From positions 192,902 to 256,901 of the forward strand of contig CBDCYR010000002.1 of NCBI GenBank assembly GCA_965224275.1: a stretch of 64,000 nt of DNA. The letters run 5' to 3'. Origin of the DNA: Alphaproteobacteria bacterium. GTDB taxonomy: Bacteria; Pseudomonadota; Alphaproteobacteria; SHVV01. This document shows, in pieces, positions 12,483 through 59,160 of this stretch. Each line of letters opens with the position of its first letter. The stretch's first letter is position 1. The notes under the pieces are model-generated. The model was not told where the DNA came from. It searched no databases and saw only the letters and a list, made by a program, of their open reading frames with translations. Both the position numbers and the translations under genes were made by a program.

Positions 12483-13100
12483 ATGGCTGACGATGCTTTG
12501 ATCCTGGTTGTCGATGACGATGATGAACTACGCGATACGCTGATTGCGATGGTCGAGTCGATCCAGCTCGATGTCCGCGGCTATGCGTCGGGCAAGGTCT
12601 TCCTTGACGAATACGATTCGAGCCGGCCGGGCTGCCTGGTGCTCGATGTGCGCCTGCCCGAACTTAGTGGGACCGAGGTTTTGCGCGAATTGCGGGACCG
12701 CGGCAGCTCGATCCCGGTAATCATCACGACCGGCTACGCCGATGTGCCCGTCGCGGTCGAAGCCATGAAACGCGGCGCTGTCGATTTTCTGGTCAAGCCC
12801 TTCAGCAACCAGGTACTGCTTAGCCTCATTCAAAAATGCGTCCAGATCGACATCGACCAGCGCCATGACGATGCCGCCCGCAAAAGCTTCAATGAGCGGT
12901 TCGAAAGCCTGACCGCGCGCGAAAGCGATGTGATGCAATTGATGGTGAGCGGCAATGCCAATAAAACGATCGCCCACCAACTCAATATCAGCATCAAGAC
13001 TGTCGAAGCCCACCGCAGCAACGTTATGCAGAAAATGCAGATATCGAGCTTCGCCGAATTGGTGGAAAGCGCCACGCGTTACGGCGTTTTGGATTCGTAG
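12483..13100 (+). CDS. Two-component response regulator, REC + LuxR/FixJ-type HTH
   Basis: 205 aa. The receiver has 'LVVDDDDELRD...LVLDVRLP' and the C-terminal part has 'ESLTARESDVMQLMVSGNANKTIAHQLNISIKTVEAHR'. Confidence 0.9.
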   Translation: MADDALILVVDDDDELRDTLIAMVESIQLDVRGYASGKVFLDEYDSSRPGCLVLDVRLPELSGTEVLRELRDRGSSIPVIITTGYADVPVAVEAMKRGAVDFLVKPFSNQVLLSLIQKCVQIDIDQRHDDAARKSFNERFESLTARESDVMQLMVSGNANKTIAHQLNISIKTVEAHRSNVMQKMQISSFAELVESATRYGVLDS

Positions 13101-13337
13101 CACAGCGGCCGGGGTCCATTCGCGCAAAGGCAACCCTTGCCCCTATACTCCGTTGACCGTCCCAGTCGGCTAATCGTTTACCAGGGGGCGAACCCGCGTA
13201 TGCCCGAATAGGAAACGCGCCTCGAATATCGCTACACGTCCGACGATGTATGGCGATCTACGACATACGCGAACCATACGACATGACGGGCGCCGTCGAG
13301 TGGGCTCACTCGGCCGGCCGATGCGGCCAAGATTTCG

Positions 13338-14529
13338 ATGAATTTTGCACTGGGGCCCCGGCGGGTCGCGCTACCTCGCTCGCTGTTTGTGCTGTGGGGC
13401 GGGATCGTTGTCAGCCTGCTGCTGTGGCACGCGGTGTCAACGCAACTCGGCGGCCCGCTTGCGATCTATGCGGCGGTGCTCTCGAGCTTGCCGTTGGCGG
13501 GTGCCTTTCATTGGATCCTACGCCAGTCGATACGCGCATCATCCGATTTCGAAATCGCCGAAACCCGCAGCTCCCACATCGATTTCCAACGCATCGTCAA
13601 AGCGACGCACGAGGGCATCTGGGTTACCGATGCCGATAATAAGACATCCTACGTAAATCCCCGTCTGACGGAGATGCTCGGGTATCAACCTCACGAACTG
13701 ATCGGGCGAACCCCGGCCGACTTGGCGCCAGACGCCGCAACACGGACCCGAGTAGCGAATAACTTGGCCCGCCGTAAGCAGGGGATCACCGACCAATATG
13801 ACATGCAGTATGTGCGTTAGGACGGCAGCGTGTTTTGGGCAATGCTGGTGGTCAGCCCGATTCTAGATGCCAAGGGCCACTATTTGGGCGCCGTCGCAAT
13901 GGTCGCCGATATCTCGGCGCGCAAGCGCGTCGAAGAAGATCTTAGCAAAGCCAACGACAGATTCCTCAAAGCGTTCTACGCCGGTCCTTGTATGTCTTCG
14001 ATCGCCGACCTTGAGACTGGCGAACTGATCGACGTCAACGACGTGTGGCTCGATACCTTTGGTCTTCGACGCGAACAGGCCGTCGGCAAAACACGTGACC
14101 AATTGGGGATCGTGTTGGAGACCAGCGTGACAGACGCGTTCCGGAAAATCACCGACGGCGCGGCAGGCAGGTTGGAGTTCGAGAGTTCGTTCACCGCAAA
14201 AGACGGCCAAACGGTGCACACGTTGGCCACCACCGAGCACGTCGAACTCGACGGCCGCCAGGCGGCACTTACGGTCTCTAGTCGATATCTCGGCGCGCAA
14301 ACAGGCGGAGCAGGAACTGCGGGCCGCCAACGACCAGTTCTTGAGAACGTTCCGCGCGAGCCCAGGAATGGGGTCGATCGCGGATATCGAAACCGGAGAG
14401 CTGGTCGACGTCAATGACGTCTGGCTCGACGTTATGGGCGTCACGCGCGCGGAGGTGGTTGGCAAGACCCGCCAGGAATTGGGCCTGGGCACATCACAGG
14501 GTGCGCGCGACGTTCGCGATAGTCTTAGA
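13338..14529 (+). pseudogene. 5' portion of a giant multi-PAS sensor kinase gene, disrupted (in-frame TAG, frameshift, IS insertion)
   Basis: Two TM helices are followed by PAS modules. An in-frame TAG sits at 13818-13820 inside the PAS motif ('YVR*DGSVFW'). A frame switch near 14285 separates '...LTVSS' from 'VDISARKQAEQELRAAN'. The reading frame then runs directly into the IS5-family element at 14530. Confidence 0.7.
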
Positions 14530-15458
14530 GTCCGACTCGAAACTCTATGTTTGATAACAGTACCTTGCGAGCCGCCTTGTGAGGAGTCGGATGTTGGCGA
14601 CAAGAATCCATGCCTGTGCGGAGGCGATTGATTTCTCCCAATCCTTGGCCAGTCGACGGCATCGGTTGAGCCAGGCGAAGGTCCTCTCGACGACCCATCG
14701 TCTGGGCAGGAGCTCGAAGCCCTGGGCGGTGTCTGAGCGCTTGATGATCTCGAGCTTCCAGCGGCCGATGTCCTCAAGGGCGCCCTCGAGTTTCGGTCCC
14801 GCGTAGGCGGCGTCGGCGAAGAGGTGACGCAGCCGGGGGAAGCGATGACGGATCGATTTGAGGACCTCGGGCGCGCCGTCGCGGTCCTGGATATCGGCTG
14901 CGTGCACGATCAGGCCGACCAGCAGGCCGAGTGTATCGGTGACGATGTGACGCTTGCGGCCCTTGATCTTCTTGCCCGCGTCATAGCCCCGAACACCACC
15001 GCTTTCCGTGGTTTTCACGCTCTGGCTGTCGATCACCCCGGCGCTCGGGCCGGCCTCGCGTCCTTCCAGCTCCCGGGCCGCCATGACCAGGTGATGGTTG
15101 ATGCTCTCCAGCAGGCCGTTGGAGCGCCAGTCGTAGAAATAGCGCTGGACCGTGGAAGGCGGAGGGAAGTCGTTCGGCAACATCGCCCACTGGCAGCCCG
15201 TCGAGGCCATGTACATGACCGCATCCATGACATGGCGCAGGTCCGTCGTCCTCGGCCGGCCGATCTTCTTGCGCGGCGGCATGAGCGGCGCGATCAACGC
15301 CCACTCTCGATCCGTCAGGTCGCTTGCGTAGCGCCCGCCACGGCGCTCATAATTCGGGCGAGTGATTTCGGTCCACATGTTGTGCCTCCTCGTTTGCTTT
15401 GACACAACCGAGTAAGCCACAACCGACTGAAATCACTCAACTAGTTTCGGGTTGGCCT
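14530..15458 (-). mobile_element. IS5-family insertion sequence (~0.93 kb, single transposase ORF)
   Basis: Imperfect terminal inverted repeats are visible ('GTCCGACTCGAAACT' at the left; the reverse complement of the right end reads 'GGCCAACCCGAAACT'). The target sequence 'CTTAGA' is present on both sides (14524-14529 and 15459-15464). Removing the element restores an uninterrupted PAS-domain frame of the expected length. Confidence 0.75.
14545..15420 (-). CDS. IS5-family DDE transposase
   Basis: 291 aa with the '[15 protein letters not shown]' N-terminus and a DDE core characteristic of the IS5 family. Confidence 0.9.
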
Positions 15459-16400
15459 CTTAGAAGTGGAACCCGCGAAAATTTCGAGACCGCAATAAGA
15501 ACCAGACACGGTCAGTCGATCGACGTTGTGGCAAGCATGCAACGGCTTGATCTGGACGGCCGCGCGGTCGTGCTCTCGGTTTCAATCGATATCTCCGAGC
15601 GCAAAAAGATCGAGGCAGAACTTCGTAAGGCCAATGAGCGCTTCGTGAAAGCATTCAACGCGAGCCCCGGAATGTCGACGATCACCGACATTGCAACCGG
15701 CGAGATCATCGAAGCTAACGACATTTGGCTTAGCGTCCTTGGATTATCGCGCGCCGACGTGATCGGAAAATCCCGACGTGAACTCGGTCTCGAATTCACC
15801 TCTACCGGCATGGACGTACGCCACGAACTCGCGGTTCGAGAAACCGATAAGACCGAAGTTGAATCCACCATATGCTCTACCGACGACGTACAGATGACCG
15901 TCATCACGCGGTTGGAGCGGATCGAACTTGACGGGCGGGCTGTGGCGCTTTCGAACTCGGTGGACATCACCGAACGCAAGCGAACCGAAGACGAGCTTCG
16001 CACCGCAAACGACCGCTTTCTCAAAATCTTTTACGCCAGCCCAGCAATGGCTTCGATTACAGACCTCGAAACCCGGTGGATAGTCGACGTAAACGACGCT
16101 TGGCTGGACGTAACCGGGCTGGATCGAGAAACCGCGATCGGCAAGACAAGGCAGGAAATCGGCTTGGTATTATCGCGCGACTTTGATTTCTTTGACGACG
16201 CATCAGATAACGCGCAGCGGCGTTCGAACATCGAGACTGTCATACGCGCAGTTGATGGCACCGAGGTCTCGCTAATTTCCAACTCGGAGCGGATCGAGCT
16301 TGATCGGCGGTCGGCCGTGCTATCGGTGTCCATCGACATTACGGAACGGAAACGCGCTGAGAAATATCTGCTTGAAAACGAGCGACGGACTAGCGAGGGT
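15399..16400 (+). other. Tandem PAS/PAC sensor modules (~4-5 repeats) within the 3' remainder ORF
   Basis: Repeated 'ANDRF/ANERF...SP...TGE..D.NDxWL' units through roughly aa 1-330 of the 15399..18986 ORF. The end coordinate is approximate. Confidence 0.55.
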
Positions 16401-18986
16401 CAACGCATGGCCCATCTAGGGACTTGGGAACGAAACCTGGACGATGGGCAAATCGTCTGGTCCGACGAAATTTGGCGAATTCTGGACCTTGATCCAGGAT
16501 CAATTGAACCCACGCCAGAGTTTTTCTTCGACGTGGTTCACCCCGACGATCTTGCTGGTCTCATAAACATGATCGAGGCCGCCTATGAACAACCTCGCGC
16601 AAGCGAGTACCGAATCATCCGGCCAAACGGCGAAATCCGTTACATCGATTCACGGCGAGAAGTCCACACCGACGAAACTGGACGACCGCAAACGATGATC
16701 GGAACGTTGCTCGATGTCACCGATCGCAAGGTCGCTGAGAACGCGCTGGCATCGTCACTGCGCGAAAAGGAAACCCTGCTGCGCGAAGTGCACCACCGCG
16801 TAAAGAACAACCTTCAGATTATCGCCAGCCTTTTGCGCTTCCAGTCCAAAAAGGCGCGTAACCCCGATGACGTGGCGGTGTTTCGCGAGGGGCAGGACCG
16901 TTTGAAGTCAATGATCCTTGTGCACGAGAAGCTCTACGGCTCCGCCGATCTATCGAATATCGATTTTGGCGATTATGTGCGAACGCTCGTCGAGCAATTG
17001 TTTCAGTCATACGACGAGCAAGCCGACAAGGTGTTGGTTTCGGTCGACGCTGACCATGTCATGCTGCCGATCGAAATCGCATTGCCCTGCGGCATGATTA
17101 TCAGCGAGCTCTTAACGAATGTTTTCAAGTATGCGTTCCCCGAAGCCAAAGCGGGTACCGCCACGGTTAGCATCAAGCACCGCGAAGAGCGGATTTTTGT
17201 AGCGGTAACTGATACCGGAATCGGGATGCCAGCGGAGATTGATATCGATGATCCCAACACCTTTGGACTGCAGCTCGTGCGCAACCTCGCCGAGCAGATC
17301 GGTGGAACGCTCGGCCTCGTTGCTGAGAGCGGGACCGCGGTAACCATTGGATTTCCCAGTCGAAAACAACACCGAGTGAAGCGCGCTATGGAGCAAGCAA
17401 GAATCTTCGTCGTTGAAGACGAGGCGTTGATCGCGATGGCGATCAAGGATCAGTTGGAGCAGTTTGGTTATGCCGTGTGTGGCACTGCCGCGCGCGGTGA
17501 ATCGGCTTTGGGGCTGATTGCCGACCGCGAACCCGATCTCGTGCTGATGGATATCAACCTCGCCTGCAAAATGAACGGAATCGAAGTCGCCGAGAAACTC
17601 CACCAATCAGGGGACGTACCGGTGGTTTTCCTAACCGCCTATTCCGATTCCGAACTCCTGGCGCGGGCCGCGATCACCGAACCGTTCGGCTATCTGATCA
17701 AACCATTCGAAGAGCGTGAGCTGCACGTCACGATCGAAATGGCGCTTTACAAGCACAGCATGGAGCAGAAGCTCCTGCAATCTCAGCGCATGGAGGCAGT
17801 CGGTCAGCTCACTGGCGGGGTCGCGCACGATTTCAATAATCTGCTCGCGGTTATTCTCGGTAATCTCGATCTGGTCTTGATGGACGATGCGATACCGGCC
17901 AAGAGCCGGAATTTGATCGACCGAGCGATTGGCGCGGTTGATCGCGGCGCCGATCTAACCCAGCGACTACTGGCTTTTGCCCGCAAGCAAGTCCTGGACC
18001 CGCAACATACCGATGTAAACACCGTGATCGAAAACACGGCGACGATTCTGGAGCGGGCGCTGGATCAGTCGATCGATCTCCAACTCGAACTGCAGGGCGA
18101 TCTACCGAATTGCCTCATCGATCAAGGTCAACTTGAGAACGCGATCATCAATCTCGCGATCAATGCCCGCGACGCGATGCCACTTGGTGGACGTTTAACG
18201 ATCGCAACCTCCCAAGATGATCTTTCCGAGCAAGATGCGTCGCTCGATGACGGTCTTGCCGCAGGCAAGTATGTCGTTGTTCGGGTCATCGATACGGGCG
18301 AGGGCATGTCTGACGACGTCATCGCGCACGTCTTTGAGCCGTTTTTTACCACCAAGGGAATCGGCCAGGGGACCGGGCTTGGGCTCAGCATGGTCTACGG
18401 CTTTGCCAAGCAGTCCGGCGGCAGCGTCCGAATTAGCAGCGGGATCGATATGGGAACGACGATCGAACTGATATTGCCCGAAGGGATTGGCGAACGGCAA
18501 AAGAGTGCGGAGGTCACGACGCCGAGTGACGAACCCGGCGTGCCACCCTCGCCCGCCGGCGAGCACACCCTTCACGTGTCGCAGCCGCCCATTCTCCGCG
18601 GCGACGGGCAGCGCCTACTGGTGGTCGAGGACAATCCAATTCTGCGGGAGTTTCTGTCGGAAGTGTTGTCGAGAAAACTCGGCTACCTGCCGGTTGTATT
18701 CGCCGACGGCGAGCCGGCCTTAGCCGAGCTCGAACGCGATCCCACCATCGCATTGCTGCTCACCGATATCGTGCTACCGACAGGAATGGACGGCCTGGAG
18801 ATCGCGCGCCGCGCGCGTGCGCTTCGCCCCGACTTACAGGTACTGCTGATGTCGGGTTTCACCGACTCGACAATGGTCCCGGAGGATCTCGCCGACGCCG
18901 GTGCCACCCTGCTGGGAAAGCCCTTTCGCACGCGAGTGCTGGCAGAAGCAATAGCCAAGGCGATCCGACCAAATTACCTGCACTGA
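15399..18986 (+). CDS. 3' remainder of the IS-disrupted sensor gene
   Basis: 1195-aa open frame whose ATG (15399) lies inside the right end of the IS5 element. Host sequence resumes at 15459. Confidence 0.6.
16700..17360 (+). other. HisKA_2-type kinase core (first kinase core of the dual-core ORF)
   Basis: '[11 protein letters not shown]' H-box near aa ~435-560 of the 15399..18986 ORF. Coordinates are approximate. Confidence 0.55.
17384..17760 (+). other. First receiver (REC) domain of the dual-core ORF
   Basis: 'RIFVVEDE...LVLMDINL' motif starting around 17384. The end coordinate is approximate. Confidence 0.55.
17760..18480 (+). other. Classical HisKA + HATPase_c kinase core (second kinase core of the dual-core ORF)
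   Basis: '[19 protein letters not shown]' H-box at ~17820 and '[18 protein letters not shown]' G-box at ~18366. Start and end are approximate. Confidence 0.55.
18600..18986 (+). other. C-terminal receiver (REC) domain of the dual-core ORF
   Basis: '[12 protein letters not shown]...LLLTDIVLP' motif. The start coordinate is approximate. Confidence 0.55.
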
Positions 18987-19280: not shown

Positions 19281-19709
19281 ATGTTTGACGTAAACGGCCA
19301 CAGCTTCAGCGACCACCTTGACGCCGCCGGCGAAACCCACGTCACCAGCAAAAACGTTCTGCTCGTTGAAGACAACGAGATGAACCGCGACATGCTCGGG
19401 CGGCGGTTGACCAAGCGGGGCTATCGGATGAGCTACGCGACGGACGGCTGGGATGCCATTCGCACCGCAACAAAACAACAACCAGACCTGATCCTAATGG
19501 ATCTCAGTCTGCCCGAGCTGGATGGTTGGGAAGCAACCCGCCGCCTCAAGGCGCAACGCTTGACGACCGGCATTCCGATTATCGCGTTGACCGCTAATGC
19601 GATGACAGAAGATCGCGACCAGTCAATCGCAGCCGGCTGCGAAGGGTTTGAGACCAAGCCGATCAACTTCGCCAATCTGCTTGGCAAAATCGCCCAATTG
19701 CTGAGCTAG
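19281..19709 (+). CDS. Single-domain CheY-like response regulator
   Basis: An ATG at 19281 is preceded by 'AGGAAAA'. The receiver motifs are 'VLLVEDNEMNRD', 'LILMDLSLPELDG' and 'ALTANAM'. The supplied ORF starts earlier at 19110, but that N-terminus has no protein-like features. Confidence 0.85.
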   Translation: MFDVNGHSFSDHLDAAGETHVTSKNVLLVEDNEMNRDMLGRRLTKRGYRMSYATDGWDAIRTATKQQPDLILMDLSLPELDGWEATRRLKAQRLTTGIPIIALTANAMTEDRDQSIAAGCEGFETKPINFANLLGKIAQLLS

Positions 19710-19711
19710 AA

Positions 19712-20807
19712 ATGGACCCGCAAGACCCAGCAATTCTCGTTGTCGACGACAACGAGAACAACCGGGAGCTTCTCGTTCGCCGGTTGGCCAAAGAGGGTTA
19801 TCCCAACGTCGTCCTCGCAGAAGACGGAAACATCGCGTTGGAGCGCCTGGTGGAGCAACCGTTCGCCCTCGTCCTGCTCGATATCATGATGCCGAACCTC
19901 AGCGGCTATGAAGTCCTCGAGGAAAATGAAGGCTGATCCGGGCTTGCGCGACATCCCGGTCTTGATCATCTCCGCGGTGCAGGAATCAGAGAGCGTCGTG
20001 CAGTGCATCGAACTTGGGGCCGACGATTACCTCACCAAGCCGTTCGATGCCGCAATTCTGCGCGCCCGGGTCGGCGCCTGCCTCGAAAAACGGCGGCTCC
20101 GGGCTCAGGAGGCGCACTACACAAACTCGTTGGAGGCGGAGAAACAGCGTTCGGACATGTTGCTGCACGCGATCCTGCCACACGGCGCCGTCCACGAACT
20201 CAGAGCATCGAACGAGATCAAACCGCGCCGTTACGACAATATTGCGATCCTTTTTTGCGACATCGTCGGCTTTACCAGCTATTGCGACGCCCACTCCGCA
20301 GAACAGGTGGTCGGCGAACTTCAGTCCCTGATGGTTGGCTTCGAAGAGGTGATCGAGGCCAATGGCATGGAGAAGATCAAGACCATCGGCGATGCCGTTT
20401 TCGCCACCGCGGGCTTGTTGCGCCATATCGAGGATCCGGTATTGGCGGCGGCGCAATGCGGACTCGACATGATCGAGGCTGCGGGCCGTCATGACACCGG
20501 CTGGGAGGTACGGGTCGGTATCCATTACGGCTCAGCCGTGGCCGGGATCGTCGGCCGCAGTCAGTTCCTGTTCGACCTGTGGGGTGACGCGGTGAACATC
20601 GCCGCGCGGATCACCGATCAGGCCGCACCTGGTTCGGTATTTCTCAGCGGTACAGCCTGGCTTCATCTCCACAATCGATGGCGCGGCAAGAGTCATGGGC
20701 TCGTTGAGCTCAAAGGAAAAGGCAAAGTAGAACTCGTCGAGTGCCTGGGCCCTTCCCGAGTTCAGCGCGGTGCCAGCGCGACGCCTGGCGAGGTGGCACA
20801 TGCGTAG
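19712..20807 (+). pseudogene. Response regulator with class-III adenylate/guanylate cyclase output domain, frameshifted inside REC
   Basis: The REC N-half ('ILVVDDNENNRE...LLDIMMPNLSGYEVLE') ends at a stop at 19934-19936. The REC C-half plus the cyclase domain ('DPGLRDIPVLIIS...KTIGDAVFA...WGDAVNIAARI') continue in another frame from ~19908. An extra G in 'ctcgagGaaaatg' (~19920) causes the shift. This could be a real pseudogene or an assembly indel. Confidence 0.6.
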
Positions 20808-25615: not shown

Positions 25616-27793
25616 ATGCGAAACATCCGTTCCTATGCGATTACAACGCTCGTGCTGGTGGTTCTGAGCGCGACTCTGATCTTCAGCTTGTACCGCTTGG
25701 GTGATGGATACCGCTCGGTCGAAAGCGGTCTGAGGACGGGGTCGTGGATGGCATCGCAAGCGGAGTTCGAACATCTCCGTTTGCTACGTGCGATCGATCT
25801 TTTCTACGCGGCCGACATTGATCAGGCGGAACTGCTATTGCGTCGCGATCTGTTTTGGAGTCGCGTCCCTCTGCTAACCAACGGGGCCGAAGCCGAGCAT
25901 CTGCGGAAAATCAAGGATGTGTACGAACTCGCGGCCGATCTCGAACGCGCGCTCGAAAAATCGATTCCACTATTTCAAGGTTTCAGTCCCGGTGACGAGG
26001 TCACTTATCGGGAAGCGAGAGAACTTTTCGAGCCACTAGCCCCGCGCTTGCACGAACTCCATCTCGAAACCTCCGGGCGCGGTTTTTCGCAAGCCATCGT
26101 CGATCGCGTGCTGGACTTGTATCGGTGGCTGCTTATCGGCTTGATTTGTGCAACCGCCGCCACCGTCGTGGTGGTTGCGATTGTCGTTTCGCAACTCCGG
26201 CGCGCGCGGGCTGCCAAGGATCAAATCCAAGCGACAACGCAGGAACTAACCGAAACGTCGTCACGACTTGACGACCTCGTCACCAACCTTCCGGCAGCGG
26301 TTGTGCTTGCCGATGCCGCGGGCGTCTACCGACACGCTAATCCCGTGTACTGCCAATGGGCCGGTTTGACCCTAAACGAAGTCGTCGGCAAAACCGCCGG
26401 CGATATCTTCCCGGCAGAGGTTGCCAGTCGGCTTGAGGATCTAAATCGCAAAGTCATTGAGGAGCGTCAGGCCATTCAAGAAGAGGTCGAGATTCCTATT
26501 AAAGGCGAGCCGAAAATCCGCTCGTTGTTGAAGTTTCCGATCTTCGATGCCGACCGCAACATTGTCGGCGTTGGCTCGGTGAGCACCGATCTCACCGCAC
26601 AACGCGAAGCCGAGCGCCGCCTGGAGCGGGCCCATCGCATGGAAACCGTGGGACAACTCTCCGGCGGCATGGCTCACGATTTCAACAATCTATTAATGGT
26701 GATTCGCGGCAACCTCGATCTTCTGCGGGAAGAACTCGGCGCCAACCCCACCGCCGCTACGAAAATCGATCGTGCGCTCAGAGGCGTCGATCGCGGCACT
26801 CAAATTATCCAGAGACTGCTGGCATTCGCACGCCAACAATATCTGTCGCCGATCCCGGTCCGCATCGACACGCTGTTCGAGCAAACCAAGGCGCTGCTCG
26901 AACGAACCCTGCGTGAGAATATTCAACTTGAGATCGACATTGCGCCCAAACTGCCATCGGTGCTTGTCGATCCCGTCCAATTCGAGTCGGCGTTGATCAA
27001 TCTGGCTCTAAACGCGCAAGACGCGATGGAAGACGGCGGATTACTGAGATTTACAGCGCGCAAAAGCGATACGACCGGGGATAAAACGCCGGCCCAGATT
27101 TCGGTTTCGGTTTCCGATAGCGGGACCGGCATCCGACCCGAGTTGTTGGACCGTGTGATCGAGCCTTTCTACACAACCAAACTTGTTGGTAAAGGCTCCG
27201 GGCTCGGTCTCAGCATGGTGTATGGGTTTGCCAAGCAGACCGGCGGCGAGATGAAAATAGACAGCGCCCTCGGGGAAGGAACAACCGTGACAATCTCGCT
27301 CCCAGCAACCCTCCAAACCAGCGTCACCGATGCCGACGATGGCGACGTTATTCAAGGCTCGGCCACGATTCTGGTGGTCGAAGATGAGCCGGACGTACGT
27401 TCGGTCGCCGAGGGATTGTTAGGCGAACTCGGTTACAATGTTATCTGTGCCGAACATGGTTCGGATGCGCTTAAAGTTCTCGAATCCAGCGTACGTCTAG
27501 ATCTGCTGTTCACCGATATGGTGCTGCCGGGCAATGTGAGCGGCCGCACCTTGGTCGAAATTACCCGCGTATTGCGGCCGGAAACCAAGGTGTTGGCGAC
27601 GTCAGGCTATGCCCAGGAAATGATTGAACGCGAGGGCGCCTTACCGATCGGGGTCACGTTGCTCGCCAAACCCTATTCCCTAAAGGCGCTCTCGATCGCC
27701 ATCGAACAAACACTGTCGTCGCAAACACCCCACCTTCCGGGCATTCCAGTACCCCGGGTTGGCGAAGAACGATGCATGGCGGCTCAGTCATGA
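25616..27793 (+). CDS. Membrane hybrid sensor histidine kinase (TM-periplasmic helical domain-TM, PAS, HisKA, HATPase_c, REC)
   Basis: 725 aa. Two TM segments flank a ~150-aa periplasmic region. The kinase has H-box '[19 protein letters not shown]', G-box '[12 protein letters not shown]' and a C-terminal REC 'ILVVEDEPDV...LLFTDMVLPG'. Confidence 0.9.
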   Translation: MRNIRSYAITTLVLVVLSATLIFSLYRLGDGYRSVESGLRTGSWMASQAEFEHLRLLRAIDLFYAADIDQAELLLRRDLFWSRVPLLTNGAEAEHLRKIKDVYELAADLERALEKSIPLFQGFSPGDEVTYREARELFEPLAPRLHELHLETSGRGFSQAIVDRVLDLYRWLLIGLICATAATVVVVAIVVSQLRRARAAKDQIQATTQELTETSSRLDDLVTNLPAAVVLADAAGVYRHANPVYCQWAGLTLNEVVGKTAGDIFPAEVASRLEDLNRKVIEERQAIQEEVEIPIKGEPKIRSLLKFPIFDADRNIVGVGSVSTDLTAQREAERRLERAHRMETVGQLSGGMAHDFNNLLMVIRGNLDLLREELGANPTAATKIDRALRGVDRGTQIIQRLLAFARQQYLSPIPVRIDTLFEQTKALLERTLRENIQLEIDIAPKLPSVLVDPVQFESALINLALNAQDAMEDGGLLRFTARKSDTTGDKTPAQISVSVSDSGTGIRPELLDRVIEPFYTTKLVGKGSGLGLSMVYGFAKQTGGEMKIDSALGEGTTVTISLPATLQTSVTDADDGDVIQGSATILVVEDEPDVRSVAEGLLGELGYNVICAEHGSDALKVLESSVRLDLLFTDMVLPGNVSGRTLVEITRVLRPETKVLATSGYAQEMIEREGALPIGVTLLAKPYSLKALSIAIEQTLSSQTPHLPGIPVPRVGEERCMAAQS

Positions 27794-42767: not shown

Positions 42768-43806
42768 ACTGGGTATCCACTTCGCTCTCGTATCCCCTAC
42801 ATTTGGTTTCCGAGGCTGCGATGACCGCCGACTAGGCCCTTGTAGGGGACCGGCTCGTGCTGCACCGCCTGCTGGAGCAGTCGGAAGAAAAGCAGGCCAC
42901 GAGCCTGCGAACGGCGGCGATTGAATCGGAAAGTGAACTCGTCGAGATAGTAGTCGAGATGGTCGGCATCGATGGCACCATGGTGGATGCCCAGCCACCA
43001 GCGATCAAGCAGAGCGGCCACGCGATGCACTCGTGGCATGACGATGTGGGCCGGGTCGCCACTGGCGGAAATGGATCTCGGCTGGTGGTCATAGCCTTGG
43101 TTCGCCAGACCACTGTAGGCTGACCAGCCATCGGTTCGGACGGTCGCGCCAGGCGCCACGGTTGTTTGGACAAACGGGATCAGGCTCCTCGCAGCCACAT
43201 CCTCGACGCGGCTCATTCGGATCCGGCCAGTGCCCCGCCCTCGGACTTCCGCCGCAATCGCGACGATCGACTTGGTCTTCGTCTGTCGCCCCACGACGCC
43301 GGTTTCCCGGCCGCCCACATAGGTTTCGTCCACCTCGACCGCGCCGCCCAGGAGATCACGCCCCGGCCTCACCATGGCGCGCCGCAACTTGTGCAGCCAA
43401 GCCCAGGCGGTCTGATAACTGCCCAGGCCAAGAATGCGTTGCAGGCCGAGCGCACTGACCCCGTGCTTCTGGTTGGTCACGTACCACATCGCCTGGAACC
43501 AAAGGCGCAATGGCTTTCGAGTGCCCTCGAAGATCGTCCCCGCCGTCACCGATGTTTGACGCTGACACCGGTTGCATCGCAACTGACCCCGCGCCGTCGG
43601 CCAGGCGTCGGTTCCGCAGCAAGACGGGCATCGAAAACCTTCCGGCCAGCGAACACGCCCAAGAAACTCCGCACACGCCGTCTCCGACACGAACCACGCG
43701 TCGAATTCAGTCAGGGTGCGCGGGTAGTCGACCCCGCCTTCGGGATGGGATGCCGGGTTCGCCATCCCAACATATTGACATCACGAGAGCGAAGTGGATA
43801 CCCTAT
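42768..43806 (-). mobile_element. IS1595-family insertion sequence (1039 bp)
   Basis: Perfect 20-bp terminal inverted repeats 'GGGTATCCACTTCGCTCTCG' (42771-42790) and their reverse complement (43784-43803). An 8-bp target duplication 'TCTTCGAT' lies at 42760-42767 and 43807-43814. A single transposase ORF lies inside. Confidence 0.8.
42797..43765 (-). CDS. IS1595-family transposase (N-terminal zinc ribbon + DDE)
   Basis: 322 aa with 'CPSCCGTD...CNRCQRQ' and 'VEVDETYVGG'. Confidence 0.85.
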   Translation of the reverse strand: MANPASHPEGGVDYPRTLTEFDAWFVSETACAEFLGRVRWPEGFRCPSCCGTDAWPTARGQLRCNRCQRQTSVTAGTIFEGTRKPLRLWFQAMWYVTNQKHGVSALGLQRILGLGSYQTAWAWLHKLRRAMVRPGRDLLGGAVEVDETYVGGRETGVVGRQTKTKSIVAIAAEVRGRGTGRIRMSRVEDVAARSLIPFVQTTVAPGATVRTDGWSAYSGLANQGYDHQPRSISASGDPAHIVMPRVHRVAALLDRWWLGIHHGAIDADHLDYYLDEFTFRFNRRRSQARGLLFFRLLQQAVQHEPVPYKGLVGGHRSLGNQM

Positions 43807-44885
43807 TCTTCGATTTCCAACTTCACGAACTCGCCACGGGGTGGTTCGGCACCGAAGACCTTGGTGCTTCCATCTAGTTTGACCAGTCGGGTCGCGATGG
43901 TGAGACGGCCGCCATTCGGCATGGCGTCACGCGCGTTGACTGCGAGGTTGAGCAAGGCCGTCTCCAGGCCGCCAATATCGAGACGAGTTATGCATGGCTC
44001 ATCGGCAAAGCAAGCCTCGAATTCGATGTTCTCGCGCAGAGCTCTTTGCAGAATGTCCTGGGTCCGGGAGATCACCGTGTAGAGATTGACCACCTCGGAC
44101 TCTAGCGGTTTGCGCCGTGAAAATGCGAGAAGGCCGTTGGCCAATTCGGATCCACGCAACGTGGCTTTGACCGCCGTCTGCAATCTCTTGGCGACTTTGT
44201 CGCTCGCATCCTCGGCCAACAGTTCGAGATTGCCGAGGACGACGCCCAAAATATTGTTGATGTCGTGGGCAATGCCGCCAGTGAGCTTACCAAGGGCCTC
44301 CATCTTCTGGGCCTGGAGGAGATTCTCCTCCAACTCGGTTTGCACGGTGATGTCCTGAACGATCCCCTCGAGCCGGAGTGGTTGGTTGGACTCGTCACGG
44401 ATGATCCTCGCCTGCGAGTGAAGCACGCGCACCTGGCCGTCCTCAGCCTTGATGCGGAAGATCATATCGGCGGCGGGCTTCCCGGTTGCTAGTGCGTCAT
44501 CGATCGGGCGCGTCGCGGCTTGTCGTTCCTTCTCGTCAATCCGCCCCAGCAATACGTCGAGGGGGACCGAATCGGTTACCTCCGCAGATCCGAACAACAG
44601 AGAGGTTTGATTGAAGCAGCGAATGTCGTTCGAATCCGCGTCACGTTCCCATATGCCGAGCTTGGCAAGGTTTTGCGCCTCCGCGAGGCGAGCTTCGCTT
44701 GAGGCAAGTTCGTTGGTGCGCTCGCGCACCCGATCTTCGAGCGCATTACGCGACTCCTCGAGTGCTGCCTGCGTTTCCCGTCTTATCTCATTCTCGTGTT
44801 TCAGTTGGTCGTTGAGACGGATCAACGCCTCGCTGCGCGCTTGCAATTCTCCTGCTACGCGAAACGTTCGGCCGACAAAGAGATA
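43807..44885 (-). pseudogene. Central fragment of the same hybrid histidine kinase (TM remnant, coiled coil, PAS, HisKA, start of HATPase_c)
   Basis: '[31 protein letters not shown]' H-box and 'NLAVNARDAMPNGGRLTIA' N-box. The fragment ends 'VKLEIE' at the IS junction. Joining it to the 42767 fragment gives '...VKLEIEDTGTGIS...', a canonical HATPase_c. The listed ORF's first residues 'VNLIIA' are encoded by the terminal repeat of the second IS. Confidence 0.8.
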
Positions 44886-44946
44886 CGCGATTATTAAGTT
44901 GACATAAGAGGCGACACTCCCCATATGTTGGAAATAGGAGATCGCC

Positions 44947-45801
44947 ATGACCACGTTCTATCAATTCCAAAAGCAGTTTCCCGATGACGAAGCGTGCCTG
45001 CATCACTTGCTGGTGACGCGCTACGGTGGGACCGAGCTGGATTGCCCGAAGTGTGGCGCGTTCGGCAAGTTCTATCGCATGACGAAAGAGCGCGGCTACG
45101 TTTGCCAGCATTGCGGGCATCACCTGCACCCGACCGCCGGCACATTCATGCATCGGACGCGCCTGCCACTTCACAAATGGTTCTACGCGATGTTTCTGTT
45201 TTCGACTTCTCGTCATGGCGTGCCCGCGAAGGAACTGGAGCGGCATCTGGACATTTCCTATCCGACGGCTTGGCGCATGGCGCATGAGATTCGTAAGCAC
45301 ATGGCCGATACGGACGGGGAATGGCCACTGGACGGCGATATTGAAGCCGACGAAACCTATGTCGGCGGGCGCACAACTGGCGGGAAGCGCGGGCGCGGTG
45401 CTCCGAACAAGACCGTCGTATTCGGGATGCTGGAGCGTGGCGGCGACGTGATGGCAAACGTTATCCCGAATGTCCGTAAGCGCACCTTGCTTCCGATCGT
45501 TGCCGAGAATGTCGAGCAGGGCAGTACAATCCACACCGACGAACTTAGGTCCTACCGTGGCTTGGACCGGGCTGGCTTCAAGCATCGGACCGTGAACCAC
45601 AGCGCGGGTGAATATGTGAACCGGGGAAGCCACGTCAACTCGATTGAGGGCTTTTGGGCTCGTCTGAAGCTGTCGATCCGTGGGACGCACGTTCACGTTT
45701 CGGCGAAACACCTTCAGAAGTACGTGAAGGAGTTTGAGTATCGCTACAACCGCCGGAAGCGGCCCGAGACGATGTTCGGCGATCTGGTGGCCCGCTTCTG
45801 A
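44947..45801 (+). CDS. IS1595-family transposase (second, distinct copy)
   Basis: 284 aa with 'CPKCGAFGKF...CQHCGHH' zinc ribbon and 'IEADETYVGG'. Confidence 0.85.
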   Translation: MTTFYQFQKQFPDDEACLHHLLVTRYGGTELDCPKCGAFGKFYRMTKERGYVCQHCGHHLHPTAGTFMHRTRLPLHKWFYAMFLFSTSRHGVPAKELERHLDISYPTAWRMAHEIRKHMADTDGEWPLDGDIEADETYVGGRTTGGKRGRGAPNKTVVFGMLERGGDVMANVIPNVRKRTLLPIVAENVEQGSTIHTDELRSYRGLDRAGFKHRTVNHSAGEYVNRGSHVNSIEGFWARLKLSIRGTHVHVSAKHLQKYVKEFEYRYNRRKRPETMFGDLVARF

Positions 45802-51829: not shown

Positions 51830-53176
51830 GTCGATAACAAACTGAGTTGACCGCTTTATGTACCATATGAATTGACCGCTTCTGTTGTGGTGGTTTGGCT
51901 CGGTCGCGTCGAAACGGGTCACGCGGCCTGGAGCCTGTCGTCGTCGATGGTTTCGCCGTCGGCGCGGTAGCGCGCCAGACACCTGGGTCCGTGGAAGACG
52001 GCCAGGTGGCCGTCGGGATATTCGTGCACCCGGACCTGCGCCTTGACGTAGTGGTGGCGGTGGCGATCGGCCGGGATCTGCAGCGTGCGGTTCTTGTAGC
52101 GCACGGTGTTGTCGCCCGCGACGACGCGGTCCTCCTGGGCGCAGAGGATGTCCTCGAGCGTGCCGGCAAAAGCCACGAAGGCCGAGCCGGTGTCCGCGGC
52201 CGGGCGGGCGAAGCGGGCGTTGTGCGCCGGCCAGAAGAGCTCCTCGAGAAAGCGATTGGCCTCGGCCATGGTGGCGATCCCGGCGAGGCGCAGCTCCTGG
52301 GGCAGGCGCTTCTGCAAGGTCCCGAACATGCGCTCCGAGCGGCCCCGGGCCTGCGGCGAATAGGCCGCGATCAACTCGATGCCGAGCTGCGCCAAGGCCC
52401 GGCCGACCTGGGTCGGGTTGTCCTTGTCCACACCGCCGCCTGCCTCGGGCGTGTGCCAGTAGTGCGAGGCCCGATCGGCGTAGAGCGAGCAGAACAGCCC
52501 GTTTTCGGCGATCACCTCGCCGAGCCCGCGGAACGTGCTCATCGTGCCCTCCTCGGCAACGAAGAAGCCCGAATAGACCTCCGATGTCGCATCGTCCATG
52601 GTCACGATCAGATCCCACCACTGGCCCGCAACCCACTCGTGGCTCGAGCCGTCCTGGTGCAGCATCATCCCCACCACCGGTCGGCGCGGCCGCTTCCGGC
52701 GGTGCGCCCCGCGCCTGGGCGCCGGCTTGATCTTGCCGTGCGCCTGCAAGCTCAGGCGAAGCCAGTTGTAGCTCAGCCCGAAGCCATGCTCGCAGACCAG
52801 CTTCTCGTGGAAGTGCTTGGCCGTGAAGTCCGGGTAGCGCGTCTCGAACAGCTCCAGCACCCGCATCACCTCGTCCACCGGCGCGCGGCGCGCCGAGACC
52901 CGCCCAAGGCGACGGTCGTACAAACCCTCGGCACCCTCGGCCTCATAGCGCTCCCGCCAGCGCCGGAACGTCCGCTCCGACATGCCCAGGATCTCCGAGG
53001 CCTCGGCCTGGCTCAAATCACCCCGATAACAACGTCCGTAGACATCCTCGAACTTCATCAATCTCAGTCCCTGCAACTGCTCCGTCCGGCGCATCCGATT
53101 CCTCCAGATTTGGAGGAAATCTAAAACCGGACAGATCATCTGTTACATAGACCGGTCATATCGTGTGTTAGCGACA
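51830..53176 (-). mobile_element. ISNCY (IS1202-group-like) insertion sequence with long 17-bp target duplication
   Basis: Imperfect ~40-bp terminal inverted repeats ('TGTCGATAACAAACTGAGTTGACCGCTTTATGTACC' versus the reverse complement of 53140-53176). A direct repeat 'GTAAAGGGGCGTTATGT' lies at 51813-51829 and 53177-53193. IS1202-group elements are known for unusually long target duplications. Confidence 0.65.
51919..53139 (-). CDS. ISNCY/IS1202-like transposase (HTH + rve integrase-core)
   Basis: 406-aa frame with an N-terminal HTH ('SQAEASEILGMSERTFRRWRERYEAEG') and DDE integrase-core-like middle. The real start is probably downstream of the listed Met. Confidence 0.75.
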   Translation of the reverse strand: MICPVLDFLQIWRNRMRRTEQLQGLRLMKFEDVYGRCYRGDLSQAEASEILGMSERTFRRWRERYEAEGAEGLYDRRLGRVSARRAPVDEVMRVLELFETRYPDFTAKHFHEKLVCEHGFGLSYNWLRLSLQAHGKIKPAPRRGAHRRKRPRRPVVGMMLHQDGSSHEWVAGQWWDLIVTMDDATSEVYSGFFVAEEGTMSTFRGLGEVIAENGLFCSLYADRASHYWHTPEAGGGVDKDNPTQVGRALAQLGIELIAAYSPQARGRSERMFGTLQKRLPQELRLAGIATMAEANRFLEELFWPAHNARFARPAADTGSAFVAFAGTLEDILCAQEDRVVAGDNTVRYKNRTLQIPADRHRHHYVKAQVRVHEYPDGHLAVFHGPRCLARYRADGETIDDDRLQAA

Positions 53177-53193
53177 GTAAAGGGGCGTTATGT

Positions 53194-54782
53194 CGACCAA
53201 AATCGAAATAGTCTGTATGATACCTTGAATCCAATATTCCGCGTTCCTTACCCGGGATCATGTTTCTGCCGCGCAATCATTCTTACATCGGATCGTGTCC
53301 CGCGGAGTGGTGTAAGAGCGTTGCGCTCTACGCTGCTCCCGGCGGGTAGGGCCGGGACGTTCAGGCTGCCACGGTGGGCAGCGTGATGGGGACATCATCG
53401 CTCAGCGGAGCGATGGATTCCAGCGTCATGTATCTCCTTGAGACGGCCCACTCGTCGTTCTGCTCGAGAAGGATGGCGCCGACGAGCCGTGTGATGGCGG
53501 CTTCGTTGGGAAAGATACCGACGACGTTGGTGCGACGCTTGACCTCGGCATGGAGCCGTTCGATCGGGTTTGTGGAGTGCAATTTCTGGCGGTGCTCCCT
53601 GGGGAAGCTCATGTAGGCGAGGACGTCGTGCTCGGCTTCGTCCATGAGAACTGCCAGCTTGGGCACCTTGAGCCTGAGCTGGTCGGCGACCTGGCGCCAC
53701 TGGACCTTCGCGCTGTCGGCGTCCTCCTGGGCGAAGGCGGTGGCGACGAAGGCGGAGACGACGCGCCGGCCCTGGCGGCCGGCATGGGCCAGCAGGTTGC
53801 GGGCGAAGTGCACGCGGCAGCGCTGCCATGTGGCGCCGAGGATCCGGGTCGCGGCGGCCTTCAGGCCCTTGTGGTCGTCGGAGATCACCAGCTTCACGCC
53901 GCGCAGCCCGCGCCGGGCCAGCGAGCGCAGGAACTCGGTCCAGAAGGCCTCGGCCTCAGACGCGCCGATCGCCATGCCCAGGACCTCGCGGCGGCCCTGG
54001 TCGTTGACGGCCACAGCCACGGTCACCGCGACCGAGACGATGCGCCCGGCCTCGCGCACCTTTACATAGGTTGCGTCGAGCCACAGATAGGGCCAGTCGC
54101 CCTCCAGCGATCGATCGAGGAAGCCGTTGACCTTATCGTCGATCTCGCCGCACAGCCTGGAGACCTGGCTCTTGGAGACGCCCGACATGCCCATGGCCTG
54201 CACCAGGTCGTCGACCGAGCGGGTCGACACGCCCTGGATGTAGGCCTCCTGGATCACCGCAGCCAGCGCCTTCTCGGCCATCCGCCGCGGCTCCAGGAAG
54301 CCCGGGAAGTAGCTCCCCTTCCTCAGCTTCGGGATCTTCAGCTCGACCGTGCCGGCCCGCGTCTCCCAGGACCGGTCGCGGTAGCCGTTGCGGTGGGTGA
54401 TACGATCCGCCGAGCGCTCGCCGTGAGCGGCGCCGGTCAGGCCCTCGACCTCCAGTGCCATCAGCCGCTCGGCCGTGAAGCCGATCATCTCGCGAAGCAG
54501 ATCGGCATCGGAGCTCTTCTCCAAAAGCGCGCGCAGGGTCATCATGTCCTGGGTCATCGTGGTTCTCCTTCGGGTCAGGTTGGTTTGCACTAGCCCAACC
54601 CTAAACCGGAACCGCGATGGCCTCCGCTGTGGATAGCCGGCTTGCCTACGCCAGACTCTCGGCGGTCGCTACGGCAAGCCGCCTACCCACAGCTAACAGA
54701 GGCTCCAACAACTCCTACACCACGTCCTGGGACACGACCTTACATCGTTGATACCTCTCCCACGTCGAGAGGTTGTGGCCGC
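53194..54782 (-). mobile_element. IS256-family element (boundaries approximate)
   Basis: It contains an intact IS256-family transposase. The exact inverted repeats and target duplication could not be resolved by eye. Confidence 0.5.
53361..54590 (-). CDS. IS256-family (Mutator-like) transposase
   Basis: 409 aa with the characteristic '[13 protein letters not shown]' DDE region and a C-terminal '[41 protein letters not shown]'. Confidence 0.9.
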
Positions 54783-54878
54783 GTATCGGTACAATTCCGG
54801 TCCCGGCGGCGTTGCCGCTACTGCTCACTTGTCTGATCGGCCTGGGGCTGATCGGTCGCGGTCGGAAATCCGCCTAAC
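54783..54878 (+). pseudogene. Orphan 3' remnant of a VPLPA-CTERM gene
   Basis: It translates to 'IGTIPVPAALPLLLTCLIGLGLIGRGRKSA*'. This is almost identical to the tail of the 40936..41670 protein ('IIPVPAAMPLLLSGLVGLGLIGWRKRKAA'). No upstream body is present; IS256 abuts it. Confidence 0.55.
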
Positions 54879-55084
54879 TGTCGCAGAGCTAAGGGCGGCT
54901 TTGGCTGCCCTTTTTGACTGACACCCGGCGATGATCCGAGTAACGCACCATTTTGGCACCGCCAAACTCTGCTCGCTTGCACACCACTAACCCGTTCGCT
55001 ACAAAATTGGGACGGTCCGGCCACGCCACGCCGGTCGAGGCTGTTTCCCTCACGAGCGGAGAGTAGTTTGAGCACCAATCCAAA

Positions 55085-56833
55085 TTGTCGCGTGCGCACC
55101 CGGCAGAACCACCCACCCCTTCGCTTGCATCGTTTCCCGCGATGACCGCGCCGGTTTTCGACCCACCCGGGCCCGGGTCTTGGGTGCTCGATGATGTGCA
55201 TTTCGCACGGCCGGCGTCGCGCTATCTGGTCAGCGTGTTCCCGTTGGCGATGCCGGTCGGATTCCGCGCCGGTACAAAGCATTATGGTCTGTTGCTCGAC
55301 TACATCGAGATCGCCTTTGTCGGCAATTTCTTCTATTCGCAGCCACGCCCGATTGGCGCACCGCCGGGCGCCAAGGGGCCGCCACCCAAGCTGATCTTCC
55401 AGATACTCACCCGCCTCCACCCCGAGATGCGCCGGCGCGTCAAACGCAGCGCCGAGGTGTTCGAAAAAAAGGCCTGGCGTGAAGATCTGGCATGGTGGAA
55501 CAACGAGCTCAAACCGCAATCGCTCGAGCATGCGCGGGGGCTGCAGGCAGTCGACCTCGACGGGCTCGCCGCCGACGCGCTGCTCGCCCATCTCAACGAC
55601 TGCCGCGAGTTCGTGCTTTTCGCGGTCACCAACCACCATCGGCTCAATCCCTGCAACATGGTGCCTCTGGGGGATTTTCTCAGTCATGCCCAGGCCTGGA
55701 CCGGCCTCGCCACAGGCGAACTCCTGCAACTCATGCAGGGCGCGTCACCCTATTCTGGCGGCGCTGTGTCCGAACTCGAGGCGCTGGCTGCAGCGTTGCG
55801 CGAAGACGCCGAAGCCTTGGCGGTGCTGCGGTCCGACCGTGATGCGCTCGACATCCTCGATCACCTGCGCAGCCACAACCGCGCGGTCGGCAATGCGGCC
55901 CGCGCCTACATCGATCTGATCGGCTATCGCATTATGTCGGGTTACGACGTCGCCGATCTCTACACGTTGGAAGCGCCGGGCTCGTTGATCGAGGTCATGC
56001 GTACCGCCGTCGATGCCGATCCCGAGGCGCCCACCGCCGCTGCCGATGTGAGCGCCAAACTCGCCGCGGTGCGCGATGCCGTGCCCGAGCGGCACCACGC
56101 CGAGTTCGACGAACTCTATGACGAAGCCCGCGCCACCTACCATTTACGCGACGAGAAGATCATGTGCGGCGATGCGCTCGCTACCGGGCTCACCCGGCGC
56201 GCGCTGCAAGCGATCGGGCGCCTGCTTGCTGAGGCCGGCAAACTCGACGACCCCACTCACATCTTCGATGCCACCCACGAGGAGATCGTCGGCTTGCTCG
56301 CAACCGGTGACGGTCCGCCGGCCGCTGAATTCGCCGAACGCACGCAACAACGGGCCGCGGCTGAGATCGCCGGCGCCCCGCCTTTGCTCGGTCCGCCGCC
56401 GGCTCCACCGCCGCCGGCCGATTGGTTCCCGGCCAAGGCGCGGCGCATGCAACAGGGCATGGACGCCGTGCTGACGCACATGTTTCGCCACGACGACCGC
56501 CCGCCCGAGGGCAAAATGCTGCACGGCCTCAGTGCCAGCCCCGGCAGTTACGAGGGCATCGCCAGGGTGGTGACGGGGCCGGACGATTTCCAGCGGGTCG
56601 AGCCCGGCAATGTGCTGGTCGCGAAGACCACGGCGCCGGCCTACAACGTGCTGCTGCCGATGCTCGGCGCGGTGGTTACCGCGCGCGGCGGCGTGCTATC
56701 GCACGCGGCCGTGGTAGCACGCGAATACGGCCTGCCCGCCGTGGTTGGCTGCGGCGAAGCGATGACCGAAATCGCCGATGGCGCGCGGGTTCGCGTCGAT
56801 GGTGATGCGGGAGCGGTTTGGATCGAGGCTTAG
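55085..56833 (+). CDS. Protein with ~440-aa N-terminal domain of unknown function + C-terminal PEP-utilising-enzyme mobile (phosphohistidine swivel) domain
   Basis: 582 aa. The C-terminus 'VLVAKTTAPAYNVLLPMLGAVVTARGGVLSHAAVVAREYGLPAVVG' is the PF00391 swivel domain with the phospho-His ('LSHAA'). The start may be the internal Met at 55142. Confidence 0.7.
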   Translation: MSRAHPAEPPTPSLASFPAMTAPVFDPPGPGSWVLDDVHFARPASRYLVSVFPLAMPVGFRAGTKHYGLLLDYIEIAFVGNFFYSQPRPIGAPPGAKGPPPKLIFQILTRLHPEMRRRVKRSAEVFEKKAWREDLAWWNNELKPQSLEHARGLQAVDLDGLAADALLAHLNDCREFVLFAVTNHHRLNPCNMVPLGDFLSHAQAWTGLATGELLQLMQGASPYSGGAVSELEALAAALREDAEALAVLRSDRDALDILDHLRSHNRAVGNAARAYIDLIGYRIMSGYDVADLYTLEAPGSLIEVMRTAVDADPEAPTAAADVSAKLAAVRDAVPERHHAEFDELYDEARATYHLRDEKIMCGDALATGLTRRALQAIGRLLAEAGKLDDPTHIFDATHEEIVGLLATGDGPPAAEFAERTQQRAAAEIAGAPPLLGPPPAPPPPADWFPAKARRMQQGMDAVLTHMFRHDDRPPEGKMLHGLSASPGSYEGIARVVTGPDDFQRVEPGNVLVAKTTAPAYNVLLPMLGAVVTARGGVLSHAAVVAREYGLPAVVGCGEAMTEIADGARVRVDGDAGAVWIEA

Positions 56834-57678: not shown

Positions 57679-57688
57679 GGCGGCGGAC

Positions 57689-59131: not shown

Positions 59132-59160
59132 CGCTTCCCGGTCGGGGACGCCGCGGCTTG

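Follow-up and report, generated by a model that had tools for sequence, protein, structure and literature searches.

Hybrid histidine kinases that carry two transmitter domains in one system have been described repeatedly. In the census by Williams and Whitworth, 262 loci with a transmitter-receiver-transmitter-receiver (TRTR) layout were counted in 1405 replicons, in every gene geometry, and two transmitters were present in 51 of 4650 hybrid kinases (Williams and Whitworth 2010; PMC3018481). Its authors judged TRTR relays to be nearly as common as transmitter-receiver-phosphotransfer-receiver (TRPR) relays and proposed that the second transmitter acts as the phosphotransfer step (PMC3018481). 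TodS is a characterised transmitter-receiver-transmitter kinase, with a demonstrated His1-Asp1-His2-Asp2 relay via two autokinase domains (PMC4321377). The locus compared here with these systems occupies positions 13338..18986 of a 64,000-nucleotide stretch of alphaproteobacterial DNA (contig CBDCYR010000002.1), hereafter the window. This interval is one former gene, of 1570 codons once reconstructed, that encodes in order two transmembrane helices, six PAS domains, HisKA_2/HATPase, a receiver domain (REC), HisKA/HATPase_c and a second REC. Judged on its sequence, it very probably once encoded a 1570-aa TRTR hybrid histidine kinase, anchored in the membrane and equipped with multiple PAS domains, and became a pseudogene only recently. 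The gene is of a known kind and in ordinary decay, and does not represent a new system.

Lesions of the kinase gene

In the window the gene is split into four successive plus-strand open reading frame (ORF) pieces (13338..13820, 13830..14417, 14341..14631 and 15399..18986), with a minus-strand transposase ORF (14545..15420) between the third and the fourth. Automatic gene calling yields three products here, of 160, 195 and 1149 aa. The full frame was reconstructed by changing a TAG codon to AAG, dropping one base at a frameshift at 14279 and removing an insertion sequence (IS) together with one TTA. An initial annotation of the locus had proposed one giant sensor gene with two complete kinase/receiver modules, and the Pfam domains found above threshold bear this out (Table 1).

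The TAG codon, also reported in the initial annotation, is read directly at 13818-13820, in frame and inside PAS1 (YVR*DGSVFW, where the asterisk is the stop). Positions 2-54 of the 113 of the PAS model match before it and positions 83-110 of the 110 of PAS_4 match after it. Because the halves of one PAS domain lie on either side, the TAG is a lesion that cuts a domain and not a gene boundary. Its obvious single-step ancestor appears to be AAG (Lys), as judged by the PAS consensus and by FTAKDGQ in the repeat that follows. The TAG is common to five of five assemblies of the population (the window and loci L001, L002, L093 and L094). No TAG-free allele is on record: the only match above 55% identity among 5.8 billion clusters is the cluster of the protein P0001, and JGI metagenome contigs gave no matches to the 54 nt around the TAG when N was allowed at the mutated position. 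No suppressor tRNA was found in the window, and TAG also serves as an ordinary stop nearby (19707-19709).

The second robust lesion is the IS, which the initial annotation placed at 14530..15458. Its assignment to the IS5 family holds, and its bounds were refined to 14528..15459. Its transposase scores 265.6 bits against the NCBIfam model NF033580 (IS5 family; cut-off 110) and 135.5 bits against DDE_Tnp_1, with an additional DUF4096 match in Pfam. The element has imperfect terminal inverted repeats (GAGTCCGACTCGAAACT at the left end and GAGGCCAACCCGAAACT at the right end, as reverse complement), a short target duplication (TTA at 14525-27 and 15460-62) and identical copies at unrelated sites. 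As had been claimed, its excision restores the expected PAS length: removal of the IS and one TTA brings back the frame and a repeat unit of 123 aa, in a tandem series of four PAS units of 125, 123, 125 and 124 aa. The IS is found in the window only. The site is empty in L001, L002, L093 and L094, all four with exactly the predicted junction.

The element is a high-copy one in this population and interrupts other genes too. In the public collection, 209 indexed blocks contain the identical transposase, which often recurs several times on one contig. Twelve further full-length copies were examined in ten loci, ten of them 100%, one 99.9% and one 97% identical, and TTA or TAA is duplicated at 13 of 13 copies, mostly within a CTWAG target. 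Since the copies are near-identical, a recent spread of the IS is suggested. In these loci (L083-L092) it sits at CTTAG/CTAAG-like sites, with back-to-back copies in L088 and L090 and a split AP_endonuc_2 gene in L086. The copy is unnamed in the collections searched. ISRm4-3 of Sinorhizobium meliloti (IS5 family) aligns with it end to end (932 vs 934 bp) and likewise has a single transposase ORF with DUF4096 and DDE_Tnp_1, but at 72.6% nucleotide identity the window IS looks like a distinct element of the same group.

The sister assemblies place these lesions in a population. The protein database holds one close relative of the gene product, P0001 (98% identity), encoded on a 10.02-Mb metagenome contig (L001). 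L093 and L094 were reached through the 90% cluster of P0001 and exact look-ups, and were aligned with the window, L001 and L002. The DNA of L001 and L002 is 99.9% identical to the window, without the IS and without the extra T at 14279; both read LTVSVDITARK and the IS-free junction exactly as reconstructed. In L093 the TAG is the only lesion of the gene, with products of 160 and 1406 aa. In L001 and L002 the T6 run at 18337-18342 is one T shorter (T5), a loss that frameshifts FEPFFTTKG in the second ATP-binding domain. Apart from the IS and the additional T at 14279, the changes proper to the window in the five-way alignment are base substitutions at 14290 and 18974. Five of the ten differences between the window and L001, and both indels, fall in the kinase gene, which makes up 20% of the aligned 23 kb (P=0.036); this enrichment hints at relaxed constraint, albeit with only ten variants.

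L094 carries a 266-bp insertion, with products of 435 and 979 aa, that is part of a stretch of about 311 nt present twice. This interruption was considered as a third independent lesion and rejected, the copy being noisy (92.9% identity, 13 gap openings) in the manner of a long-read artefact. The duplicated stretches lie at 5400..6000 in L094 and, in the upstream response-regulator region and with unaligned sequence, at 4880..5110 in L093. The TAG and the IS are robust; indels of one base, in these long-read assemblies, call for caution.

The interval thus carries a lesion within a conserved domain that is reproduced across assemblies, as is required of a pseudogene. The first lesion was probably the AAG-to-TAG nonsense change in PAS1, which would predate the split of the five sampled strains or assemblies. 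In the window strain, the 932-bp IS would then have entered a CTTAG site of PAS3 in the opposite orientation and duplicated TTA, and the 1-bp insertion at 14279 would be either a real mutation or an assembly error. The population data offer a small example of pseudogene decay, in which a shared nonsense mutation is followed by different secondary lesions according to the strain. Annotations should describe the interval as a single disrupted TRTR hybrid kinase gene with an IS5-family element, not as three or four separate PAS/kinase genes; its importance beyond annotation is little.

Table 1. Features of the kinase locus and its immediate neighbours. Residue numbers of kinase and receiver domains refer to the 1195-codon ORF, and domain scores to Pfam thresholds.
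Feature	Position	Strand	Residues	Details
FixJ/NarL-type response regulator (REC + GerE), candidate partner	12483..13100	+		237 bp upstream of the kinase gene; Pfam
5' kinase-gene fragment: two predicted transmembrane helices and N-terminal half of PAS1, ending at the TAG	13338..13820	+		Pfam, direct reading; identical 160-aa product on five contigs
Same-frame continuation: C-terminal half of PAS1 and PAS2	13821..14279	+		Extra T at 14279 shifts the frame; Pfam, assembly alignment
N-terminal part of PAS3, up to the IS site	14281..14527	+		Frame +1 relative to the start
IS5-family insertion sequence, 932 bp	14528..15459	-		Imperfect terminal inverted repeats, TTA duplication, CTTAG target in PAS3
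IS transposase, 277 aa	14545..15378	-		ATG at 15378 preceded by GAGGAGG; NF033580, DDE_Tnp_1, DUF4096
Codons derived from the IS and target duplication, opening the 1195-codon ORF	15399..15462	+		TTG start, no Shine-Dalgarno
Sensor part of the 3' remainder: PAS3 tail, PAS4, PAS5, PAS6	15463..16784	+		Tandem units of about 125 aa; PAS6 of PAS_3 type
First transmitter: HisKA_2 and ATP-binding domain	16785..17300	+		H-box EVHHRVKNN 16785-16811, N-box 17106-17138, DTGIGMP 17211-17231
HisKA_2 (PF07568)			463-538	95.8 bits, cut-off 22.3
HATPase_c_2			543-634	33.8 bits, cut-off 27.4
Receiver 1	17403..17735	+	669-779	Above threshold; VEDE, Asp in LVLMD 17538-17561, T in FLTAY, K in YLIKPF
Second transmitter: HisKA and HATPase_c	17802..18482	+		H-box VAHDFNNLL 17820-17846; N, G1, F and G2 boxes present
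HisKA			802-864	34.4 bits, cut-off 26.9
HATPase_c			908-1028	109.6 bits, above threshold
Receiver 2 and natural stop codon	18615..18986	+	about 1073-1186	Second Response_reg stretch; LLVVEDN, Asp in LLLTD 18753-18779, S in LLMSGF, K in LLGKPF
Single-domain receiver, candidate phosphorelay partner	19281..19709	+		Immediately downstream; Pfam
Receiver-adenylate/guanylate cyclase gene, itself frameshifted, candidate partner	19712..20807			

Alternative readings of the disrupted gene

The frameshift is the least firm of the lesions. One extra T is present at 14279 (GTCTCTAGTC in the window vs GTCTCAGTC in L001, L002, L093 and L094), where it breaks LTVS-VDISARK, the motif closing every PAS repeat unit of the protein. 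The initial annotation had placed a frameshift at about 14285 and called the gene a triple hit; the extra base stands, and the count is qualified in that it is private to the window assembly. An assembly or polishing error may be involved, in which case the gene would be a double hit (TAG and IS), a reading that deserves consideration while falling short of an even chance. The extra T lies 11 nt from a second private change, at 14290, which matches the paralogous repeat boundary 13908-13924, as if reads of one PAS repeat had polished another, and sister assemblies of the same project type hold noisy duplicated stretches. Against an error, the site is not a homopolymer, and a dead gene is expected to collect such changes. 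The private T at 14290 makes the PAS repeat boundaries 13908..13924 and 14284..14300 identical over 17 nt (GATATCTCGGCGCGCAA) in the window alone, which could result from intragenic conversion or mis-polishing. An IS-excision footprint was ruled out as the source of the +1, as it would be of 3 bp.

A second alternative holds that the TAG was not lethal. A GTG codon at 13830, 9 nt past the stop and with AGGA 7 nt upstream, is the start used by gene callers in the sister assemblies, and reinitiation there would give a soluble, anchorless kinase of 1406 aa, functional until the IS arrived in the window or the T was deleted in L001 and L002. L093 retains this 1406-codon ORF uninterrupted, and the gene shows no degenerative substitutions even though all five assemblies kept the TAG. 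Such a product would, however, begin in the middle of a PAS fold, and further disrupting changes were found in at least two lineages. The strains differ by only about 0.05%, so that an open ORF says little about selection. Continued function through this GTG is considered unlikely.

According to a third alternative, this strain still produces a soluble, N-terminally truncated dual-core kinase of about 1150-1195 aa, whose start codon, and perhaps also promoter, come from the IS. The 1195-codon ORF is indeed open across the junction between IS and gene with its catalytic motifs all intact, and the automatic gene call on the source contig starts at ATG 15537 (P0373, 1149 aa). The initial annotation had the ORF begin at an ATG inside the IS, which turned out to be incorrect. 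The frame opens after TGA 15363, and within the stretch contributed by the IS it offers a single start-type codon, TTG 15399. No ATG occurs in frame before 15537, which lies 75 nt past the IS, and the other early start-type codons in frame (GTG 15528, GTG 15570) are likewise outside it. The 20 nt upstream of the TTG are a pyrimidine-rich sequence (GTTGTGCCTCCTCGTTTGCT), the complement of the GAGGAGG ribosome-binding site of the transposase. No Shine-Dalgarno or purine-rich motif precedes any of these four codons, and a scan of 13100-15700 on both strands for promoters of sigma-70-type consensus only found nothing. The promoter of the transposase does not serve the remainder, since the two lie on opposite strands. 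The sequence gives no support for initiation at TTG 15399. An intact ORF would be expected anyway after a recent inactivation, and ten of the twelve other IS copies are 100% identical. The 3.5-kb remainder is open, with all its catalytic motifs, probably because inactivation is recent, not because of continued use. Production of a truncated kinase in this strain is thus quite improbable.

The remainder had also been described as sensor-less and as holding four to five PAS domains. It is neither: it holds the last 42 aa or so of repeat unit 2 (PAS3) and three complete PAS domains (PAS4, PAS5 and PAS6), the reconstructed gene having six. In a more far-reaching version, the IS insertion or read-through from the old promoter would yield a soluble truncated TRTR kinase (three PAS, both cores, no anchor) from a non-canonical start that rewires the neighbouring six-kinase cluster. 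If true, the insertion would have given the gene a new function (neofunctionalisation) instead of killing it, but there is very little likelihood of it.

Several points weigh against the interpretation of the locus as a recently inactivated TRTR kinase gene and the history given above. Inactivation is itself read from the DNA, and a truncated product might still be in use, to judge by the intact 1195-codon 3' ORF and the 1406-codon ORF of L093. Reinitiation at GTG 13830 just after the TAG is plausible given the AGGA before it. The single-base indels at 14279 and 18342 are not secure, because L093 and L094 show noisy duplications of long-read type. The enrichment of differences in the gene comes from ten variants, and assembly problems, to which internal repeats make the gene prone, may have inflated it. 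Finally, the phosphotransfer route proposed below is drawn from domain order and from the analogy with TodS.

The two-core layout compared with described systems

Both cores and both receivers pass Pfam thresholds, and the phospho-acceptor and nucleotide-binding motifs are all present. The first kinase-like region does score as HisKA_2 and HATPase_c_2 above the cut-offs (Table 1) and is a HisKA_2-type kinase with its conserved His; HATPase_c also matches it, in two stretches, and the N-box and DxGxG are present. The second core is a classical HisKA/HATPase_c hybrid kinase. This two-core layout is uncommon but not new, and the claim of an unusual fusion made in the initial annotation was overstated: TRTR proteins are catalogued (PMC3018481), TodS is characterised (PMC4321377), and other proteins of the same order were found. 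The window protein resembles the census proteins in its alternating transmitter and receiver domains; it differs in that HisKA_2 and HisKA cores are not separated in that census, and in that the window example is inactivated (PMC3018481).

Proteins with both cores in one polypeptide were recovered at low identity. P0121 is arranged PAS-HisKA_2-...-REC-HisKA-HATPase-REC and is 45% identical over REC-HisKA-HATPase-REC and 43% over HisKA_2. P0122 (HisKA_2-HATPase-REC-PAS-HisKA-HATPase) is 42-43% identical and P0242 (HAMP-PAS-HisKA_2-HATPase-REC-PAS-PAS-HisKA-HATPase-REC) 37% identical, while P0252, P0279, P0241 and P0360 are further two-transmitter variants. An exhaustive search of 1.84 billion representatives gave mostly single-core CckA-like hybrids, together with REC-HisKA-HATPase-REC proteins that stand alone at about 516 aa. 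Hybrids of the HisKA_2-HATPase-REC type are common as well. Among GTDB species representatives, the best matches to the reconstructed protein reach 39-48% identity, over the C-terminal module only. Both cores in one ORF were seen in none of the 80 GTDB loci among the matches listed, and a HisKA_2 kinase lies nearby only in L035.

A rival view, in which each kinase module is normally a gene of its own and the loss of a stop codon alone joined the two here, is hardly credible: stand-alone proteins of about 516 aa are common and their residue 1 aligns with an internal Met of the window protein, but the one-polypeptide order is kept in P0121, P0122 and P0242, which are only 37-45% identical, HisKA_2-HATPase-REC hybrids are themselves common, and all five assemblies share the fusion. 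Since distant relatives keep both cores in one polypeptide, the fusion is old and not a local accident. The internal Met in question lies past the first ATP-binding domain (17388..17423), aligned with residue 1 of proteins such as P0247 and P0330. It may be a relic start codon, which hints at an old fusion to an upstream HisKA_2 kinase gene.

In TodS both cores are classical HisKA, a second PAS domain stands between the receiver and the second kinase, and the protein is soluble. The window protein shares with TodS/TmoS (TodS from Pseudomonas putida) the PAS sensors and two autokinase modules with a receiver between them in one polypeptide, as seen from the Pfam domain order, and in both cases a NarL/FixJ-type regulator is encoded next door. 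Compared by description, not by sequence, it differs from TodS by a HisKA_2 first core, by two transmembrane helices and by the absence of a PAS domain between receiver 1 and the second core; receiver 1 ends at residue 779 and HisKA begins at 802, which leaves no room for one. In the census, TodS is T-R-T, is paired with a separate regulator and ends with its second transmitter, in contrast with the C-terminal second receiver that follows the second core here (PMC3018481).

The closest solved structure to the first core (residues 12-214 of the dual-core segment) is EL346 from Erythrobacter litoralis (PDB 4r39/4r3a; E about 1e-19). The PhyK model matches it at 110 bits, far below the equivalog cut-off of 750. 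Like HWE/HisKA_2 kinases the first core has the H-box, but the protein around it is far larger and includes a second kinase. For the second core, the closest solved structure is the DHp-CA part of CckA (PDB 5idj; E=4e-45), and the PRK13557 and CckA models also match it together with receiver 2. The AHDFNNLL H-box and the FEPFFTTK motif are present. The score nevertheless reaches 329.6 bits with the Brucella CckA model and 279.9 bits with the Caulobacter one, vs an NCBIfam equivalog cut-off of 1000, so that the protein is not a CckA orthologue; its gene is moreover one of six kinase genes within an accessory cluster of about 22 kb.

When intact, the protein would have been anchored by its two transmembrane helices, with almost no periplasmic loop, and would have sensed via its six cytoplasmic PAS domains. 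Signals perceived there may have controlled autophosphorylation of the HisKA_2 core, whose His would probably pass the phosphoryl group to the Asp of receiver 1. Either receiver 1 would hand the phosphate to the His of the CckA-like second core (His1-Asp1-His2-Asp2, by analogy with TodS), or it would gate that core allosterically. The second core would then phosphorylate receiver 2, with output to the neighbouring receivers. The reconstructed 1570-aa protein could serve as a HisKA_2-first variant in studies of TodS-like internal phosphorelays.

Genomic neighbourhood

The upstream response regulator, the downstream single-domain receiver and the receiver-cyclase are candidate partners of the kinase, as suggested by their position and domains. 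The receiver-cyclase gene is itself split into a 74-aa ORF (19712..19936) and a 299-aa ORF (19908..20807), apparently by one extra G near 19921; with this base removed, CTCGAGGAAAATGAAG would encode LEKMKADPG. L001, L093 and L094 have the gene called in the same two pieces; L002 shows the upstream 74-aa ORF, and its contig ends there.

The genome is about 10 Mb and IS-rich. Given this IS load and the redundancy of kinases, the loss of one of them is unremarkable. A second IS polymorphism was observed between the window and the near-identical L001: this locus (from its position 23021 onward) departs from the window at about 27787, 7 nt before the stop of a 725-aa PAS hybrid kinase gene (25616..27793), and carries beyond that point a DDE_3 (IS630-type) transposase gene that is missing from the window. 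Other transposase genes of the window are of ISNCY (51919..53139, minus strand), IS256 (53361..54590, minus strand) and IS1182/IS5-like (59247..60602, plus strand) types, which makes 51919..60602 an IS-rich region. At 43803..44954 (minus strand), a CckA-like kinase ORF of 383 aa, whose best NCBIfam matches end within the kinase region (positions 143-329 of the 540 of PRK13557), may be another truncated kinase gene.

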